From the IMG/VR virus record IMGVR_UViG_3300049444_000130: 28,804 nt of DNA. One strand, written 5' to 3'. Below the pieces are notes generated by a model. The model was not told the origin of the DNA and did not search any database. It worked only from the letters and a program-made list of their open reading frames with translations. Below, in pieces: positions 1 through 11,233 of the stretch (its first letter is position 1; each line of letters begins with the position of its first letter). A program made the position numbers and the translations under genes. Origin of the DNA: a virus. Lineage: Duplodnaviria; Heunggongvirae; Uroviricota; Caudoviricetes.

Positions 1-2
1 TT

Positions 3-1043
3 TTTGAGGAATACCCGCTGGCCCTGATTGAACGGCTGGCGCACGTGCAAGCCGCCCTTGGCCAGCCCTGGACGCTCGAGGGGCTGTACAGCGTGTCCGT
101 CTTGCGGGTGCACATGGAACGCCTGCTCGCCGACTACCTGTCACACCTGGGCTTTCATGCCACGGGCAAGCTCACCGCCCTCATTGGCGAGTACCGCAAG
201 AGCGGCACCACGGACCTGGTGGCCGATGCCCTCATTGACGACTTAGAGAAACCACGCGATCACTTTACCAAGGTCACGAGTAACCTCATTCCGGCCTTTC
301 GTGGGGTGGTGGGGGCGCCCCTGGGGCCGCTGTTCTCGACCCTCCCGGCGGACGTCACCTGGACGCGGATTGTCGAGGAGGAGATGGTGGTCTACGTGGC
401 GCTCGCCTCGATGCTGCTCGGCGATATAGCCAACCGCATTGGTCGCGTCATCCTGCAAGACCTGGTGGGGTATCTCGGGCGGCGGTATGCCTATGACGAC
501 ATGACGACCGCCTCGCCCATCACCGTGCTGATCGATGAGTTTGGCGACGTGGCCTACCCCTTGTTCACCAATGCCCTCAATAAAGGGGGAGGCGCGAATG
601 CCCGCTTCATGCTGGCGCAGCAGTCGCTGGCCGATGCCGAGGCCGCGATGGGGCCGGCGCAGGCACGCCGCGTGCTCGACAACCTCAACACCAAAATCTG
701 GTGTCGCCTGGCGGATGATCGTACGGCCAAGGAAGCGACCGACGGGCTGGGCCTGTGTACCGTCCAGCTTCCTGAAACCAGCGTGGGCCTGTCGTATGGC
801 GGTGTCGGGGGACTCAGTGGCTCCGCGCACCGGCGCCTGGCCCCCAAAGAGGTGCCCCTGATCCGGCCCACCTGGCTCACGGCCCTCCCCCGGGGCGAGG
901 CGTTCGTGCGGATGAAAGGCGAGGTGTGGAAGCTGCGCGTCCCGCTGCTCACGCCCGTCCCCCAGGAGATGCTCGACACCCTCGGGCTGACGGCCCTGTG
1001 GACTGGCCTTGATCCGGCTACCGCCCCAGGTACACCGCCGTAG
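3..1043 (+). CDS. traD: Type IV coupling protein (TraD/VirD4 family), C-terminal part, 5' truncated by window edge
   Basis: Frame is open from base 3. Walker-B-like VLIDEF, then QSLAD and VLDNLNTKIWCRLAD, and the C-terminal LPRGEAFV motif typical of TraG/TraD C-terminal domains. Confidence 0.8.
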   Translation, partial: FEEYPLALIERLAHVQAALGQPWTLEGLYSVSVLRVHMERLLADYLSHLGFHATGKLTALIGEYRKSGTTDLVADALIDDLEKPRDHFTKVTSNLIPAFRGVVGAPLGPLFSTLPADVTWTRIVEEEMVVYVALASMLLGDIANRIGRVILQDLVGYLGRRYAYDDMTTASPITVLIDEFGDVAYPLFTNALNKGGGANARFMLAQQSLADAEAAMGPAQARRVLDNLNTKIWCRLADDRTAKEATDGLGLCTVQLPETSVGLSYGGVGGLSGSAHRRLAPKEVPLIRPTWLTALPRGEAFVRMKGEVWKLRVPLLTPVPQEMLDTLGLTALWTGLDPATAPGTPP

Positions 1044-1124
1044 CGGTTGCCAATGAGCGTATTCGAGCGCATCGCCATCTTGGGCCGTACGAGTACGGGC
1101 ACCAAAACACGGAAAGGACACTCT

Positions 1125-1601
1125 ATGAAAGAAGCAAAGAAGGCGCTGTCGGCACGCCCCATCGCCACGCTCATACTCCTATTCCTCGGCATAGGCTTCG
1201 TAACCTATAGTGCAGTGAAGATGCACGCCACCAGCATCCCAACGGTCCCAATGGAAGCAGCGACACCCCCCAGCATACCTCCCTTCCCCGTCAAGCATAT
1301 CCGTCCCGATATGTCACGGGAGGAGGAAGAAATACGAGTAAGTGTGGACCGTAGAACCTGGGAAACACCTCCCAGCTTTAACCTGACCGATTTTCGCTAT
1401 TTCCGCGTCTACCACCGCGAGCTGGATCAGGAGCTCATCTATTGGGTAGGAGACCTTCGCTGGTGCGATGAGGAACCAGCAAAAGAGCAAAGTTTTTATT
1501 CGTACCTGACTGATGCCTACTGTTACGACAAGGGACATAATCATGCCATTCTCGGTTCAGATATGACATGCGATAACTGTATCCGACCCATACGGCGATG
1601 A
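1125..1601 (+). CDS. Hypothetical protein with N-terminal transmembrane/signal segment
   Basis: AAAGGA RBS upstream of ATG 1125; hydrophobic stretch IATLILLFLGIGFVTYSAV; lower GC than neighbours. Confidence 0.65.
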   Translation: MKEAKKALSARPIATLILLFLGIGFVTYSAVKMHATSIPTVPMEAATPPSIPPFPVKHIRPDMSREEEEIRVSVDRRTWETPPSFNLTDFRYFRVYHRELDQELIYWVGDLRWCDEEPAKEQSFYSYLTDAYCYDKGHNHAILGSDMTCDNCIRPIRR

Positions 1602-2084
1602 GAACACCTCCAGAACAGTCAACGACTGCCGACTAAAGATCGGCAGCTTGTCGCTGACTGACAGTCAGCCCAGGGTAGCCAGACTGACACGCGCGACCTT
1701 GGATCGTGTACCACGGTCCGTGAGGGTGATTGACTGCACCCCGATTGCCTTGATGTCTTTGAAGTAGAAAGTAACTATGGCGACACCTGACCTGAGCCCA
1801 ACCGTTGATCACCGTTGCCGGTGTGCCTTTAGCTCTGGAAGAAATTATAACAGTTTATTTGTAACCTTTACAACAGTTTATGCGGCGCTGCCGCACGAGG
1901 AATTGAGCCGTACTGGCTCAACCTCCTATCCCTCTGCTCCCTAAAGGAAGCAGTATCCCGGAGGTCTTTATGAGTCTCCTGTTGTCAGATTCAAGGCCCT
2001 TTTTCACGAATGAAAGGAGAACGATGATCCAACAATTTTTTGGTACGCTCGAAGTCGATACGGCGCGACGGGCCTTGCCCCCCA

Positions 2085-2957
2085 CTACCGCCCGAGATAC
2101 ACCGCCGTGATCGCCTCACGGTGATGGCCCATTTCCGCGCTGATCATGAGGCGGACATCCTCATCAATCTGTCGCTGCATCGGGGTGAGCTGTCCCCGCG
2201 AGGGGCCTCCTGCCTTGGGCGCCAGAAAGCCGGCCAGCACGGCAAAGCGCTCCTGCGCGTACGCGTGTCGTAAGCCGTGCATCTTGTCGAGGTTGGCGCG
2301 GCGGCAGTGGCCCTCATAACTGTGGAGCTGCTGGGCATACGTCTTATGCTTGGGAATCAAACTGGCGTTGTGGAAGCGCGCCAAGGCCTTGGCGCGGTCG
2401 AGCACCTCGCGCTGGGCCGGGGTCTCCAGCGGAATCGTCCGGGGTTGTCCCCCTTTGCACCAACTGCCCTGTAAGGCCAGCTCCGTCCCGTGGTCCGCCT
2501 CGTGCGGCTTGAGTTTGATCGCTTCCTGGCGCCGCAGCCCAAAGGCCCGTTGGAGTTCGAGACTCATGCGGACGTAGGCATTCTGGACACGCGAGAGGCC
2601 CTCGGGGCTGAGCTGGCGTGCCTTGGAGACCGTGGGAATCGGCTGGCGCTTGGCGATGCCATAGGCGTCATTGGTGGCCTTGAGCATGTCGGCTTTGCCA
2701 ATGTGGGCCGCCCACCAGCGCAGGACACTCATGCGGTTCTTCTGGGTGGACGGGCTCAAGCCATCGCCCTGCCACTGGCGGAGCAGGGCGTGGACATGCC
2801 GGCCCTTGAGATCATAGGCGTGGAGCTGCTGAAACCCTGCCGCGATCAGCTGCTCGCCCATCTGGTGGAGGATGGCTTTACGGTTGGCTTGCGTGGCGTA
2901 ACTGCCTTCGCGGGCACGCTGGGTCAGTTGTTTGAGTTCGTACAGTAAATCGCGCAT
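2085..2957 (-). CDS. Tyrosine recombinase (Phage_int_SAM_2 + Integrase_1-like)
   Basis: N-terminus MRDLLYELKQLTQRAREGSYATQ is typical of this family. Catalytic set GLRRQE (R), HGLRH (HxxR), MGH (H) and AVYLG (Y) is present. Confidence 0.88.
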   Translation of the reverse strand: MRDLLYELKQLTQRAREGSYATQANRKAILHQMGEQLIAAGFQQLHAYDLKGRHVHALLRQWQGDGLSPSTQKNRMSVLRWWAAHIGKADMLKATNDAYGIAKRQPIPTVSKARQLSPEGLSRVQNAYVRMSLELQRAFGLRRQEAIKLKPHEADHGTELALQGSWCKGGQPRTIPLETPAQREVLDRAKALARFHNASLIPKHKTYAQQLHSYEGHCRRANLDKMHGLRHAYAQERFAVLAGFLAPKAGGPSRGQLTPMQRQIDEDVRLMISAEMGHHREAITAVYLGR

Positions 2958-5816: not shown

Positions 5817-6048
5817 GCCGGAGGGCGCGATATTCCATGTAGAAGCCGACGGGCCGTTGATACCGAGCCGTACGGGCCGGGGTCACGACCGTCCCCGTAT
5901 AGGGGACATAGATGACTCCCGCATGTTCCAGATTGGGAAGATGCCGGCCCTGTAAGGCCGTCTCGAGCGGAAATGCGGCCACGGCGAGACGGCAGCCCGT
6001 CGCGGTATGACTATAGGTAATGGTCGAAGGAGACGGAAGAAGAGACAT
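5797..6048 (-). CDS. Small hypothetical protein
   Basis: AGGAG RBS upstream of ATG 6048; 83 aa. Confidence 0.45.
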   Translation of the reverse strand: MSLLPSPSTITYSHTATGCRLAVAAFPLETALQGRHLPNLEHAGVIYVPYTGTVVTPARTARYQRPVGFYMEYRALRPMPQRA

Positions 6049-6176
6049 CGCATCACTCCTGGGTTGAAAAGGCACGGGAACATCGCAGGAGTCTACCATT
6101 GTTCTAACGACACTGCCACTGTTTGTTCCAGTTTGGGCTGTCGTTTTTCTGTTTGTCCTTATGCGTAGAGACTAAT

Positions 6177-6788
6177 ATGGCCAGCCGCAACCAAACCGCT
6201 GTCTTGGAACGGCGCCACCACGTCGCCCGGTTGTATTTGCAAGGCGAGCAACAATACGCGATCGGCCGCGCGGTGGGGGTGTCGCAAGCCCAGGTGAGCA
6301 TGGATCTTGCGGCCATTAGGGGCCTATGGCTCGCCTCGTTGGTCCGCGATTTCGATGCCAAAAAAGCGGCGGAATTAGCGCGTATTGATCTCATTGAGAC
6401 GGAAGCCTGGGCGGCCTGGCACCGGTCGCAGCAACCGCGAGAAGTGACCTTCACGGAAGCCACCGAGGGGGGAGAGGTCATCGAGGCGGATGGCACGCGC
6501 CACGCGAAAGCGCCCACGCGCAAGGCCAGCATGCGGCGGGAAGGGCAGGCGGGGGACGCGCGTTTTCTGGAGCGCATCCAGAAATGTATTGATCAGCGCT
6601 GCGAGATTCTGGGGCTCAAAGCGCCCCAGAAAACCGCCGCCACCTTGCCGGATGGCACGGCCCTGCCACCCCCGATCCAAGGGCCAGATGTCACCTTCTT
6701 TACCGAGCTGGCGCTCCTCTTTCAGCAATTAGGACCCACGCATGTCCACGATGCTCGCGCCAGCAGCCTCCCCGTGGTGGACGCCTGA
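6177..6788 (+). CDS. Putative terminase small subunit (N-terminal HTH)
   Basis: HTH-like QYAIGRAVGVSQAQVSMDL; lies directly upstream of and overlaps TerL. Confidence 0.65.
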   Translation: MASRNQTAVLERRHHVARLYLQGEQQYAIGRAVGVSQAQVSMDLAAIRGLWLASLVRDFDAKKAAELARIDLIETEAWAAWHRSQQPREVTFTEATEGGEVIEADGTRHAKAPTRKASMRREGQAGDARFLERIQKCIDQRCEILGLKAPQKTAATLPDGTALPPPIQGPDVTFFTELALLFQQLGPTHVHDARASSLPVVDA

Positions 6789-8974
6789 ACGCCAGGCACA
6801 GACCCTGCAGGCCCTGCGGCTCAACCACTACATCCCCCAGTTTCCCACCGCCAAACAAGCCTATGCCTTGCTGCTGCCCCACCTGGAAGTCTTTTTTGGC
6901 GGGAGTGCTGGACCAGGCAAATCAAGTTGGCTTCTTATGAGTGCCTTGCAATACGTGGACGTGCCCGGGTATGCGGCCATCCTCTTCCGCCGCACGTTTG
7001 CCGAGCTGTCGAAGCCCGATGCGTTGATGGACCGGGCGCATGCGTGGTTGCGGGGCACGGATGCCCACTGGGAAGCGTATCGCCATACCTATGTGTTCCC
7101 GTCCGGGGCACAACTGGTGTTTAGTCATCTCGAAAATGAGATGAGCAAATATGAGCACCAGTCGGCAGCGTACCAGTTTTGTGTTGCCCGAGGCACCCCC
7201 ATCCTTCTGGCGAACGGGCACTATCAGCCTGTGGAAATGCTCAAACCTGGTATGCTGGTAGCGACATTGCAAGGTCCCCGTCCTCTTACGTATTGCGCTC
7301 CCCCACGGGCCGAGTTCTGCTATGCGCTGCATACTGCTGGTACCGTAACGGTCGTGAGCGCCTCGCACCAGATTTTAACGACGCAGGGCTGGCACGCCCC
7401 CCTGGGGGAGATCGCCAGACAATGCCATGCAGGTGACACCACTTCCGCAATGTCCCAGGCGTTATCTGAAGCACCTCACTTGCATATTCATAGCCCACCG
7501 TGGGATCAGCAGCAAGGAGACGTACCTGGATTTCCACCGCGGCAGGCAAGGGGGCTCCTGGGGAACGACGCATGGTTAGCAAATGCGCAAATCGGTTGCG
7601 GAGCGTCTGCTGATGGACACCAAGGAGGGCCGCTGGAGCGTCCCTGGAGTGCTGTACGGACCTGCACTTCATCCAAAGATGCACGGCAATGCTGCTTGGA
7701 ATCGTCGGCATGGAGCACCCCATGCGCATTGCGGGAAGGCAGACAGAGTAAATTTGCATAGCGGTTGTCATGGCGGATATGATTCGCATGATGCACGATT
7801 TCTGCAGGATCTAAGAGACGTCCGAGATAACATTCCATTACAAGGCGGTGTTGCGGCACGTTTCCACCCACTCGTGCATGGGGATGATCCGGAGCATATT
7901 CTGCGATATATCCCCCGACCCTATGAATATTCCCACCCCTACACGAGATTGCCGGTCCAAACGGATACCCCGCTCGTTTCCGCTGATATTGGAATGGTCC
8001 CAGTGGGTGTGCAGGTCGTGTATGATCTAAGAGTGGCAGAAGCCTCACACTATATCTCCTTTGGTGGTATTATATCACAAAACTGTGGTTTTGACGAAAC
8101 GACGTCCTTTACTGAATCCATGTATCGCTTTCTCTTTTCTCGACTCCGACGATTACGTGGGGTGGCTGTCCCCATTCGCATGCGGGCCGCCTCGAATCCT
8201 GGCGGGATTGGGCATGGATGGGTCCGCCAGCGGTTTATGGTCGAGCAGGACCCCCAGCGGGCCTTTGTCCCGGCCCGGCAACTCGACAACCCGCATCTGG
8301 ACGTCGAGGCGTATGAGCAGTCCCTCGCCCAACTCGACCCCATCACGCGCCAACGGCTGCGGGCGGGGGATTGGGACATTACCGAAGAGGGCAAGCTCTT
8401 TAAGCCCCATTGGTTTGCCGTGGTCCCCGACTATCCCCGCGTGGCACGGATGATCCGGTTTTGGGATTTTGCCGGGACAGAAGTCACCTTGACCCGCGGC
8501 GGCGAACTCCGCAACGACCCCGACTGGACGGTGGGCTTGAAACTGGCGGAGTATCGCGGCCAGTATTGGGTGGTCGATGTGCGTCGGGCGCGGCTCTCCC
8601 CCAAAGGCGTGGAAGACCTGGTCAGTCAGACGGCGGCCCTCGACGGGGCACACGTCGATATCTGGCTGGAGCAAGAGCCCGGCTCCTCCGGCAAAGCCGT
8701 CATAGAGGACTATCAGCGGCGGGTGTTAAAAGGCTACGCCGTCTATGCCCAGCGCTCGACGGGCTCAAAGGTGGAGCGGGCGAAGCCGGCGAGTAGTGCG
8801 GCGGAAGCCGGGAACATCGCCGTGATTGCCGGGCCATGGAATGCCACATTTTTGGAAGAATTGAGCCTCTTCCCCCAGCAGGGCGTGCATGACGATCAAG
8901 TGGATACGCTCTCCGGGGGGATCAATGTGCTCCGCGATGCGCCCAAACGGGCCGGGGCGTGGGGGCGCGGGTAG
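6742..8974 (+). CDS. terL: Terminase large subunit containing an intein; frame broken by one indel inside the intein
   Basis: Walker A GGSAGPGKS. Spliced Walker B QF|CGFDE. Coupling motif AASNPGG. Nuclease motifs RFWDFAGT, LEQEPGSSGK and HDDQVD. Split over ORFs 6742-7761 and 7583-8974. Confidence 0.92.
7286..8048 (-). CDS. HNH homing endonuclease with C-terminal HTH-like segments, antisense inside the intein; frameshifted near 7634
   Basis: GYIAEYAPDHPHA...QHRLVME...VHHANHIRHDNRYANL (HNH_3-like) in ORF 7506-8048 continues as AALLGVHQQTLRNRF...YASEVLQITPGTLRKW in ORF 7286-7789. It has its own RBS. Confidence 0.85.
8056..8077 (-). promoter_or_regulatory. Extended -10 promoter and Shine-Dalgarno for the antisense HNH
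   Basis: Minus strand reads TGA-TATAAT-ACCACC-AAAGGAG-ATATAGT-GTG(8048). Confidence 0.8.
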
Positions 8975-9045
8975 GCTTGTGTGCCCAGGGCGTTTGCGGT
9001 ACACTCAGGCACGATACGCGGCCCTCTTTCTCCAGGAGCGATCAG

Positions 9046-9750
9046 GTGACACAGCCCTCTCCCCCCGGGACTATTGGTATAATTAGTTCCGATTTAGCAA
9101 GATATACGTGGTTTCTCCAGCGGATGTTGGCGCTCCAGATTCCTCCAGGGTGGCAGATTCTCTCGTGTGCAGGCCAGTGGATTTCCACCGGGCTGAACCT
9201 GCTCATTGACGGCATGCGCCCAGACGATGCGTATTTTCTCCTGATCCCTGACGACCACCTCTTTGAGCCCGATATCCTCTATCGTCTGCTGGCGCACAAC
9301 TTGGACATCGTGGCACCCCTGTGCTGTCTGCGACGGCTGCCCTATGCCCCGGCGCTCTTTCATACGACGCCAGAAGGCTATCGCGGGATGACCTGGCCAG
9401 AGTTAGAAGGCCACACGGGCCTGTATGCGCCGGACACGATGGGGGGACCATTCGCGCTGATCCATCGTCGCGTGCTCGATGCGCTGGGACCGCCCTGGTT
9501 TCGGTCCCAACCAAACGACCCGAACCCCTGCGAAGATCTCTATTTTTTTCAGCGAGCCCGCCAGCTCGGGTATCAACCCTATTGTGACCTCGACCTGCCC
9601 ATCGGCCATATCCTCCCCGCCGCCGTGTATCCCCAACGCATGCAGAGCGGCGATTATGCTGTACGGGTCTGGTCACATCAGGACTTGGCGCTGTTGCCGC
9701 CGTCGGCCACGCGGGTGCTCGATACGCGGCCCTATCATGCCTATACCTAG
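9046..9750 (+). CDS. GT-A fold (family 2-like) glycosyltransferase
   Basis: AGGAG before GTG 9046; DxD-like IPDDH; GGPFALIHRRV; acceptor-side CEDLYF and LPIGH. Confidence 0.8.
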   Translation: MTQPSPPGTIGIISSDLARYTWFLQRMLALQIPPGWQILSCAGQWISTGLNLLIDGMRPDDAYFLLIPDDHLFEPDILYRLLAHNLDIVAPLCCLRRLPYAPALFHTTPEGYRGMTWPELEGHTGLYAPDTMGGPFALIHRRVLDALGPPWFRSQPNDPNPCEDLYFFQRARQLGYQPYCDLDLPIGHILPAAVYPQRMQSGDYAVRVWSHQDLALLPPSATRVLDTRPYHAYT

Positions 9751-9760
9751 CGAGACATCC

Positions 9761-10297
9761 ATGAGTGAGTATCACGTGACGCTCTATGAGCCCCATACCA
9801 TCCACCACACGGCCCTCCTGGGCGATGGCACGGTGGTCTATGCCTATACCACGATTGGCGAAGGCGTGGAGATCGGGAAAGACTGTCTCATCGGCGCATG
9901 TGTCTTCCTCCCACGCCACTGCCGCATCGGAAACGGCACCCGGATACACCATGGCGCGGCATTGGCGGAAGGCTCGATTGTTGGCAACCAGGTCTACATC
10001 GGTATCCACGTGGTCTTCACCGATGTGAAATATGTCAACCTCCGCCACAAAGGGCAGGAAGACCACCGTCCCCCCGTGGTCGAGGATGACGCGGTGATCG
10101 GCTGTAACGCCGTGCTCCTGCCCGGGGTCGTGGTCCATAGGGGGGCCGTCGTGGGCGCCGGCAGCGTGGTGACACGGGATATTGGGCCGGGCGTCGTCGT
10201 CGCCGGCAACCCGGCCCGGCCCTTGCGCACCAGCACGCGCAAGCTGGTCCTCATGCCCGAGCCCATCGATGCCGACGGCACCAGTGTGGTCCGGTAA
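9761..10297 (+). CDS. Hexapeptide-repeat (left-handed beta-helix) acyltransferase
   Basis: Repeats such as TIGEGVEIGKDCLIG; C-terminal VIGCNAVLLPGVVV..GAVVGAGSVVTRDI..VVAGNPAR. Confidence 0.88.
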   Translation: MSEYHVTLYEPHTIHHTALLGDGTVVYAYTTIGEGVEIGKDCLIGACVFLPRHCRIGNGTRIHHGAALAEGSIVGNQVYIGIHVVFTDVKYVNLRHKGQEDHRPPVVEDDAVIGCNAVLLPGVVVHRGAVVGAGSVVTRDIGPGVVVAGNPARPLRTSTRKLVLMPEPIDADGTSVVR

Positions 10298-10300
10298 GCC

Positions 10301-11233
10301 ATGCCCTTCACCGTCGCTCTCACCTACGCCGCTGCCCCTCCCTTGCGTCTGCACGCCTCGCGGCTGCCCTTGTGGCGACGGTTGCAGGCCGTGGCGGATG
10401 CCGCCGTGTCCCGGATCACCACGCTCTGGGTGGGCCTGGTCACCGACGTGCGGGAGGCCCTCGATCCCCAGGCACTGACCCATACCCTGGACGCCTCGAC
10501 CTGGCTGCCGACGGACTATCAGGTGGGGGCCGTGTGGGAGGAACACGCGGCGGTACCCGCACGCCAGCTCCTGCCCGTGGTGCTTCAGGAGACGGTCACC
10601 GCCGCGGCACAGGAGACCACGCCCGCGCTCACGGCCCAGCTTGGCGTGACGCTCGACTTTCAGCCCGGCACGTCCACGGTGCAACAGGCGATTGATGCGT
10701 ATGTCGGCACACAAATCCGCGCCATCAGTGCGACGACGTTGCAGACGGTACGGGAGGTGTTGCGCACGGGCTGGAATGCGCAGCTGTCCATCCAGAGCCT
10801 GGCCCAGGAGCTGCGGACGGTGATCGGGCTGACGCCACGCCAGCACGGGGCGGTAACGCGGCTCCGGGAGCGGCTGACGGAGGCCGGGCAATCGGCGGCG
10901 CGGGTGCAGCGGGCGGTCGAGCAGGCGGTGCAGGTGGGGATACGCCAGCGCGCCCTGAACATTGCGCGGACGGAATCCATGGATGCCAGCGCCTTGGGGT
11001 CGCACCTGGCCTGGGTTGAATCGGTGCAAGCCGGGTATGTAGACGTGGGCCAGATACGGCGGTATTGGGAGACGGCGGGGGAAAGCGCCTGCCCAGAGTG
11101 CGCCCAGATCCCCGGGATGAATCCCGAGGGCGTGGGGCTGTATGAGCTGTTCCAAACGCCCTACGGCCCGCTGTTGATGCCGACCGCCCACCCGTCCTGT
11201 CGCTGCACCATTACTCATCAGGTGATGGGGTAA
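10301..11233 (+). CDS. Minor head / head morphogenesis protein (Mu gpF / SPP1 gp7 family)
   Basis: RALNIARTE, CPEC and terminal HPSCRCTI motifs. Confidence 0.85.
   Translation: MPFTVALTYAAAPPLRLHASRLPLWRRLQAVADAAVSRITTLWVGLVTDVREALDPQALTHTLDASTWLPTDYQVGAVWEEHAAVPARQLLPVVLQETVTAAAQETTPALTAQLGVTLDFQPGTSTVQQAIDAYVGTQIRAISATTLQTVREVLRTGWNAQLSIQSLAQELRTVIGLTPRQHGAVTRLRERLTEAGQSAARVQRAVEQAVQVGIRQRALNIARTESMDASALGSHLAWVESVQAGYVDVGQIRRYWETAGESACPECAQIPGMNPEGVGLYELFQTPYGPLLMPTAHPSCRCTITHQVMG

Follow-up and report, generated by a model that had tools for sequence, protein, structure and literature searches.

How does a homing endonuclease gene come to be expressed when it lies backwards inside an intein, on the strand opposite to its host gene? 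The question is raised by terL in a stretch of 28,804 nucleotides (nt; hereafter the window) from a virus of the Caudoviricetes (IMG/VR record IMGVR_UViG_3300049444_000130). Here terL carries an intein, and the intein contains, on the minus strand, a gene for an HNH-type nuclease. The neighbouring packaging and head genes that were checked (terS, 6177-6788; terL itself; and the genes in 9124-11233) all lie on the plus strand, and the antisense HNH gene needs signals of its own. Recent papers describing nested or antisense homing endonuclease genes leave open how these are expressed. For this locus the sequence points to an answer within the intein itself: we consider it probable that bases 8046-8086, which encode the catalytic end of the intein and the first residue of the C-extein, carry the expression signals of the homing endonuclease gene. 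The features on which the argument rests are as follows.

6742-7179, plus strand: terL N-extein, 146 codons with Walker A, ending ...AAYQF; it aligns with intein-free and intein-bearing TerL proteins.
7180-8083, plus strand: class-1 intein in terL (splicing predicted), 305 amino acids (aa) in its intact form; its frame shifts at 7633/7634 in the window.
8084-8974, plus strand: terL C-extein, with Walker B (GFDE) and the nuclease domain Terminase_6C.
8081-8086, plus strand: splice junction, with the intein Asn (AAC, 8081-8083) followed by the extein Cys+1 (TGT, 8084-8086).
7286-8048, minus strand: antisense HNH homing endonuclease gene, 257 aa in intact relatives, with an N-terminal HPLG motif, an HNH_3 core and two helix-turn-helix modules.
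About 7850-7731, minus strand: HNH_3 core, within the antisense HNH gene.
8046-8048, minus strand: predicted GTG start codon of the HNH gene, overlapping the intein codons for Ser (TCA) and His (CAC).
8056-8062, minus strand: putative Shine-Dalgarno (SD) sequence AAAGGAG, 7 nt before the GTG, on the codons for Ile-Ser-Phe.
8069-8077, minus strand: putative extended -10 element TGATATAAT, on the codons Ile(ATT)-Ile(ATA)-Ser(TCA), with a predicted transcription start site (TSS) near 8062.
8092-8097, minus strand: weak -35-like hexamer TCGTCA, matching at 4/6 positions with a 17-nt spacer, on the Asp-Glu codons of TerL Walker B, in the extein.

On the plus strand, 8045-8086 reads TCA CAC TAT ATC TCC TTT GGT GGT ATT ATA TCA CAA AAC TGT, encoding S-H-Y-I-S-F-G-G-I-I-S-Q-N-C. 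Read on the minus strand, the same bases give TGATATAAT (8077-8069), 6 nt (ACCACC), AAAGGAG (8062-8056), 7 nt (ATATAGT) and GTG (8048-8046), which confirms base for base the claim of the initial annotation that the codons of the splice motif read in antisense as an extended -10 element, a ribosome-binding site and a start codon. The Ser-Phe pair under the SD occupies variable positions of intein block G. In the mechanism that we propose, the primary sigma factor and RNA polymerase of the host would recognise the extended -10 element and start transcription near 8062, the resulting short leader would begin with AAAGGAG, and ribosomes would start at GTG 8048 to produce a nuclease with an HNH core and a double helix-turn-helix. 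This nuclease would presumably cut intein-free terL alleles, into which the intein would then be copied. The signals would be fitted into the choice of codons (ATT-ATA-TCA, ATC-TCC-TTT and TCA-CAC) and into two variable residues of the last 13 intein codons. The motif, the antisense gene, the forced start codon and the equivalent signals in relatives are observed; the transcription start, the production of the protein and its homing are the inferred steps of this scheme.

The antisense gene has the properties of a true nuclease gene. Its window copy is cut by a frameshift to an open reading frame (ORF) of 180 aa (8048-7506, minus strand), which matches Pfam HNH_3 (PF13392; E 1.6e-8, 34.5 bits against a cut-off of 24.8); Pfam HTH_28 is also matched by the antisense nuclease. 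Protein and pattern searches recovered a family of 18 loci of the same layout, in each of which a stop-free intein of 297-325 codons, with an antisense HNH gene inside, occupies the same site of terL. The residues QHRLV...VHH.N...DN..NL...H are invariant in an alignment of 17 members. Identity is higher in the HNH frame than in the intein frame in all 136 of 136 pairs (0.415 versus 0.255), and the intein frame has no stop in any locus, although synonymous shuffling of the HNH gene would introduce 3.5-8 (probability of zero stops at most 0.011 in each of seven loci). The better conservation of the HNH frame, together with the stop-free intein frame, indicates that both strands are under selection. 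By these sequence measures the antisense HNH gene is real, and from the layout only we infer that its nuclease homes on intein-free terL. In three members (L006, L010 and L098) the HNH ORF extends to within 8-11 codons of the intein Cys1, so that the C-terminal tail of the nuclease overlaps nearly the whole N-terminal splicing domain.

The best supported of the three signals is the start codon, and GTG 8048 very probably serves as such. An in-frame TAA of the HNH frame at 8072-8070 falls inside the -10 box, and GTG 8048 is the only ATG, GTG or TTG between this stop and the conserved L-P-x-H-P-L-G motif. The HPLG motif is kept in the HNH frame where the opposite intein peptide differs (VGVQV in the window versus AGEAE in most relatives), and the mirrored intein residues are not retained in members whose HNH gene starts further downstream. 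Since the motif is kept independently of the intein peptide, it is under selection as nuclease sequence, which means that translation has to begin upstream of it. The sequence AAGGAG lies 7 nt before GTG 8048; in the predicted fold of the mRNA 5′ end, which has no special structure (z = 0.14), it stays unpaired. TATAGT (8055-8050), in the slot used by most relatives, was rejected as the -10 element of the window: transcription starting 7 nt downstream of it would exclude GTG 8048, after which there is no later in-frame start.

For the promoter itself the evidence leans, somewhat less firmly, towards TGATATAAT being functional. The pattern TGNTATAAT occurs three times on both strands of the 28.8 kb, a 20-fold excess over the 0.15 copies expected, and none of 100 shuffles reaches three; the other two copies in the window are intergenic, that at 9075 facing the next gene at 9124. 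Within 6000-10000 the site at the intein end is the best promoter-like site on either strand, and on the minus strand no promoter-like site was found in this interval outside the intein-end patch, with none in 8100-10000. Given the extended -10 element, a -35 element is probably dispensable at the intein site.

Two further promoter-like sites occur in the window. On the plus strand, TGGTATAAT at 9075-9083 lacks a -35 element and lies in the gap after the terL stop, 41 nt before the ATG at 9124; this site suggests that extended -10 promoters may be the norm in this phage. On the minus strand, TGTTATAAT at 1844-1852 has TTGTAA 18 nt upstream and lies in an AT-rich gap (1601-2085), downstream of a tyrosine-recombinase-like ORF (2085-2957, minus strand). 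No convincing minus-strand ORF follows it, and the site may drive a small RNA.

The related inteins offer a comparison across a wide range of sources, comprising viral contigs and metagenome-assembled genomes labelled Dehalococcoidia, Chlamydiae, Smithella, Verrucomicrobiota and Acidimicrobiales; loci L105, L106, L109, L111 and L115 are instances of the intein and antisense HNH unit in such assembled genomes. Over the full length of terL, about 2.2 kb, the best sigma70-like site on the antisense strand falls within the last 15 intein codons in 15 of the 18 relatives, where about 0.5 would be expected by length. Four loci (L006, L095, L100 and L109) carry at the intein end TTGACA, a spacer of 16-18 nt and TGnTATAAT, and for nine of 20 loci the signal exceeds the recoding null of that locus (p < 0.05). 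The -10 element occupies one of two slots 20 nt apart, on the codons for I-[IV]-[SA] (the window, L091, L097 and L104) or for H-Y-I (most others). The distance from the -10 element to the start codon goes with the presence of an SD sequence: with a gap of 6-9 nt, 10 of 11 loci have no SD and look leaderless, and with a gap of at least 20 nt, five of six have one (the window, L091, L095, L100 and L109). The host range is very wide and the signals differ with it: low-GC members have consensus sigma70 promoters, and the starts of high-GC members look leaderless.

A check proposed by the initial annotation, synonymous-site conservation across homologous inteins, yielded a weak signal that is confined to subgroups: 29 of 42 codons are identical in the last 13 codons, versus 92 of 195 in the N-terminal splicing domain. 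A search of a phage collection by blastn gave no match. The six near copies are identical in the patch and the next relative stands at 53% HNH identity, a spacing that leaves no room for a fine-scale synonymous test.

Several observations weigh against the proposal that the end of the intein holds the expression signals of the nuclease. Recoding of the tripeptide H-Y-I produces an antisense TATAAT, by way of CAT-TAT-ATN, 25-33% of the time, and even perfect promoters reach per-locus recoding p-values of only 0.001-0.04. A TSS at 8062 would place the SD at the very 5′ end of an unusually short leader of 14 nt. The -10 elements were scored against a sigma70-type consensus that may not apply in the host. 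Across the family, the exact bases differ from one subgroup to another and an SD is missing from most members; L003, L007 and L101 have no site that satisfies the -10 rule, and members with F-I-S read TATAAA or TACAAA, without the conserved last T. The last 13 codons are only modestly conserved at synonymous sites, and the members are not phylogenetically independent. Finally, the nuclease gene of the window is itself frameshifted, with loss of its DNA-binding modules, and terL is broken with it.

Some of these points also feed the alternative that survives best, which we nevertheless regard as unlikely: that the -10-like and SD-like strings are a by-product of a splice block rich in Ile, Tyr, His, Ser and Phe and of an AT-rich, horizontally acquired element, the nuclease being transcribed from elsewhere or hardly at all. 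H-Y-I and I-I-S do readily yield TATAAT-like antisense hexamers, the per-locus recoding values are modest, and the differences in exact bases between subgroups are what a by-product would show; in addition, the GC content of the intein lies below that of the host gene in every relative. The joint arrangement in the window is harder to obtain in this way. Synonymous recodings of the peptide that hold an in-frame start, an SD and a -10 element together make up 0.09% under window codon usage and 0.5% under uniform usage (probabilities of 0.0009-0.005), falling to 0.005% and 0.05%, respectively, if a perfect extended -10 element is required. Two of the codons concerned are rare, ATA accounting for 7% of Ile codons and TCA for 6% of Ser codons in the genes of this phage. 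The confinement of the other TGNTATAAT copies to intergenic DNA, the prediction of SD presence by the -10-to-start gap across the family, and the lack of an alternative minus-strand promoter-like site nearby likewise count against a by-product.

The second alternative accepts the SD and the GTG as real and has transcription come from a minus-strand promoter that lies farther upstream, within the extein or past it, or from antisense read-through, with TGATATAAT incidental. It bears on the base composition of the region, which includes one further feature.

7985-8155: AT-rich patch at synonymous sites, spanning the 5′ end and the signals of the HNH gene and, upstream of these, 72 nt of extein.

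The description of this patch in the initial annotation as AT-rich within a GC-rich gene is borne out by the GC content, which is 0.38-0.43 over 8030-8150 versus about 0.6-0.7 around it, and by the GC content at third codon positions: the final 33 codons of the intein have 0.39 and the 24 codons that open the C-extein 0.38, compared with 0.71-0.77 over the remainder of terL. Such an AT-rich tract in the extein is not general to terL, as 66 intein-free alleles have no dip after the insertion site (+0.005 +/- 0.09), and among intein-bearing loci it is specific to the lineage of the window. The tract may represent an upstream promoter element or the footprint of co-conversion; a co-conversion donor was sought among the relatives, and no candidate with raised identity was found. 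The reach of the patch into the extein would suit a promoter located there, as would the very short leader that TGATATAAT would give, and the translation signals, with a forced start and an ideal SD spacing, are better supported than the promoter. On the other side, no other minus-strand promoter-like site was found in 8100-10000, the genes checked between 8084 and 11233 lie on the plus strand, and the relatives place consensus promoters inside the intein. We judge a promoter upstream of the intein end improbable.

The frameshift in the window copy has to be considered before the last alternative, and is defined by the following feature.

7633/7634: 11-nt deletion (TGCTTCACGGG missing), which frameshifts both the HNH gene and the terL-intein frame.

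A tblastn search with the HNH protein of a relative passes from frame -3 to frame -1 at 7632/7633, and on the other strand the terL-intein frame switches from the frame beginning at 6742 (stop at 7761) to that beginning at 7583. Over 3-5 kb, five contigs from other samples (L005 and L118-L121) match the window at 100% identity, apart from the 11 nt, which all of them carry. An intact TerL of 747 aa is found on six contigs and a broken N-terminal part on one contig of 92.8 kb. The continuous frame of intein and exteins, broken in the window, is thus kept in the five otherwise identical contigs and in the 18 relatives. The deleted and the intact junctions are both absent from IMG/VR, and the deletion is either a rare allele or an assembly error. 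As it is confined to the window, the functional element is taken to be the intact allele of the other samples. The deletion allele gives two overlapping ORFs (6742-7761 and 7583-8974), with an ATG at 7613 preceded by GGAG 9 nt upstream; a true split intein or fractured gene was rejected as the main explanation of the locus, the prevalent allele being contiguous.

That the nuclease is dead here, its motif a fossil in a decaying element and the AT-rich extein tract the co-conversion footprint of a low-GC donor, is very improbable: the deletion in both genes and the lineage-specific extein tract, absent from intein-free alleles, are what such decay would leave, but the deletion is private to one contig and the five intact contigs show that the element is not decaying as a population, nor did any candidate donor with raised identity emerge for the tract.

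The intein into which the signals appear to be written has the residues expected at both splice ends. Its Cys1 is at 7180-7182, block B (SASH) at 7357-7368, and blocks F and G read ...VVYDLRVAEASHYISFGGIISQN, followed by Cys+1 and Walker B GFDE. C1, H63, D286 (the block F Asp) and N305 are invariant among the 18 related inteins. Sequence profiles are borderline (Vint, E 0.007-0.015; intein_Cterm, 14.2 bits against a cut-off of 15.6), and a sequence search of the PDB with the intein gave no match, whereas a fold search did. An AlphaFold2 model of the intact allele, built with the 18-sequence family alignment, has a predicted local distance difference test score (pLDDT) of about 90 for residues 1-80 and 245-305 and below 50 for residues 83-152 and 166-242, and the top Foldseek matches of the model in the PDB are all inteins (gp41-1, MchDnaB-1, PI-SceI and Mtu RecA). 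The residues and the model place 7180-8083 among class-1 inteins of the Hint fold, with splicing activity predicted. The disordered middle is the reverse complement of the antisense HNH gene. Its motif H-P-Y-T (7925-7950 in the window), invariant in the family, mirrors the invariant S-C/Y-R/K-G-G of the HNH frame, so that this conservation in the disordered middle is borrowed from the other strand.

A penultimate His is common in inteins, and is not obligatory. The present intein ends in Gln-Asn, as the initial annotation had noted; the penultimate residue is S, Q, R, K or A across the family and His in none of the 18 relatives. A connection of the Gln-Asn ending with the promoter was ruled out, the trait being family-wide and its codon lying upstream of the -10 element.

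How far the overlap extends as an evolutionary principle is a separate matter. We regard as evenly balanced the broader proposal that, throughout this family of terminase inteins, which spans phages and prophages of many phyla, the highly conserved C-terminal splicing block has co-evolved into the promoter of its own antisense HNH gene, and in some members also into a ribosome-binding site or a leaderless start, with departures in residues shaped by the DNA signal. The clearest such departure would be H-Y-I in place of the H-N-F of other inteins, such as Npu DnaE and Ssp DnaB. The initial annotation had described the end of the intein as triply constrained by splicing, transcription and translation. 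A real gene, a forced start, an SD sequence and the equivalent signals of the relatives speak for this description; its weak side is that the bases are not conserved family-wide. Its further statement that the promoter always lies inside the homing unit holds for the -10 element, the SD and the start codon, and fails for the -35-like TCGTCA. With that hexamer in the extein, only the -10 element, the SD and the start travel strictly inside the intein.

Antisense endonuclease genes in inteins have precedents, namely a LAGLIDADG gene in the DnaX intein of Synechocystis (Gorbalenya, 1998; Gogarten, 2002) and VSR-like or LAGLIDADG genes in actinobacteriophage inteins, whose hosts include the terminase large subunit (Gosselin, Arsenault and Gogarten, bioRxiv 10.1101/2025.01.02.630785). 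As in those cases, the splicing blocks of a contiguous intein flank a complete nuclease ORF that is read from the other strand, and the frame of the intein itself is kept open. In contrast to them, the nuclease combines HNH_3 with two helix-turn-helix modules, a type that Gosselin et al. list as in-frame only; within the literature searched, it is a new nuclease type for the antisense-in-intein layout. Promoters are not mentioned by Gosselin et al. (2025, bioRxiv 10.1101/2025.01.02.630785), and the literature searched yielded no paper in which an intein splice block is overlaid by a promoter or a start site.

Three other systems share part of this layout. Fractured genes likewise have a free-standing nuclease gene between intein halves, and the deletion allele of the window is formally two overlapping ORFs; the prevalent allele here is, in contrast, one contiguous precursor, and the nuclease there is VSR-like rather than HNH (Dassa et al., 2009; PMC2677866). 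The hidden HNH gene of the ShiLan domain in a phage methylase gene (Arsenault et al., 2025; PMC11855218) is also nested in a stop-free host ORF, but it shares the strand of that ORF and differs from it in frame; no intein is involved there, and no promoter was proposed. The present gene, in contrast, runs antisense within a bona fide intein. Free-standing and intron-borne homing endonuclease genes of phages, such as T4 seg/mob and I-TevI, have promoters of their own and resemble the present one in that a selfish nuclease carries its expression signals within the mobile unit; their signals lie in non-coding or intron DNA, whereas here they would lie over the codons of a catalytic splicing motif on the other strand (reviewed in PMC2988022).

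The arrangement is an overlap of three codes and not a new class of element. If the signals work, it would be a compact solution, with promoter and start held within the codons of a catalytic splice motif; being written into those codons, they could not be lost without killing the intein and would always move along with it. About 35 bp would then serve protein chemistry, transcription and translation at once, as a clean natural example. Should family-wide co-evolution also be true, the overlap would amount to an obligatory three-way code and the homing unit would be transcriptionally self-sufficient.

Two further loci recovered with the family show other arrangements. A contig of 1241 nt (L004; Logan SRR32481288) carries an intact HNH gene of this family with a TTG start and GAGAGGAG 7 nt upstream, flanked by remnants of intein block B and block F; the intein frame has stops, there are no terL exteins, and the copy may be a relic or a relocated one. 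In L003, a portal/MuF fusion gene (1-2150, minus strand; 981 aa) has a weak Intein_splicing match, which suggests that this phage carries a second intein.

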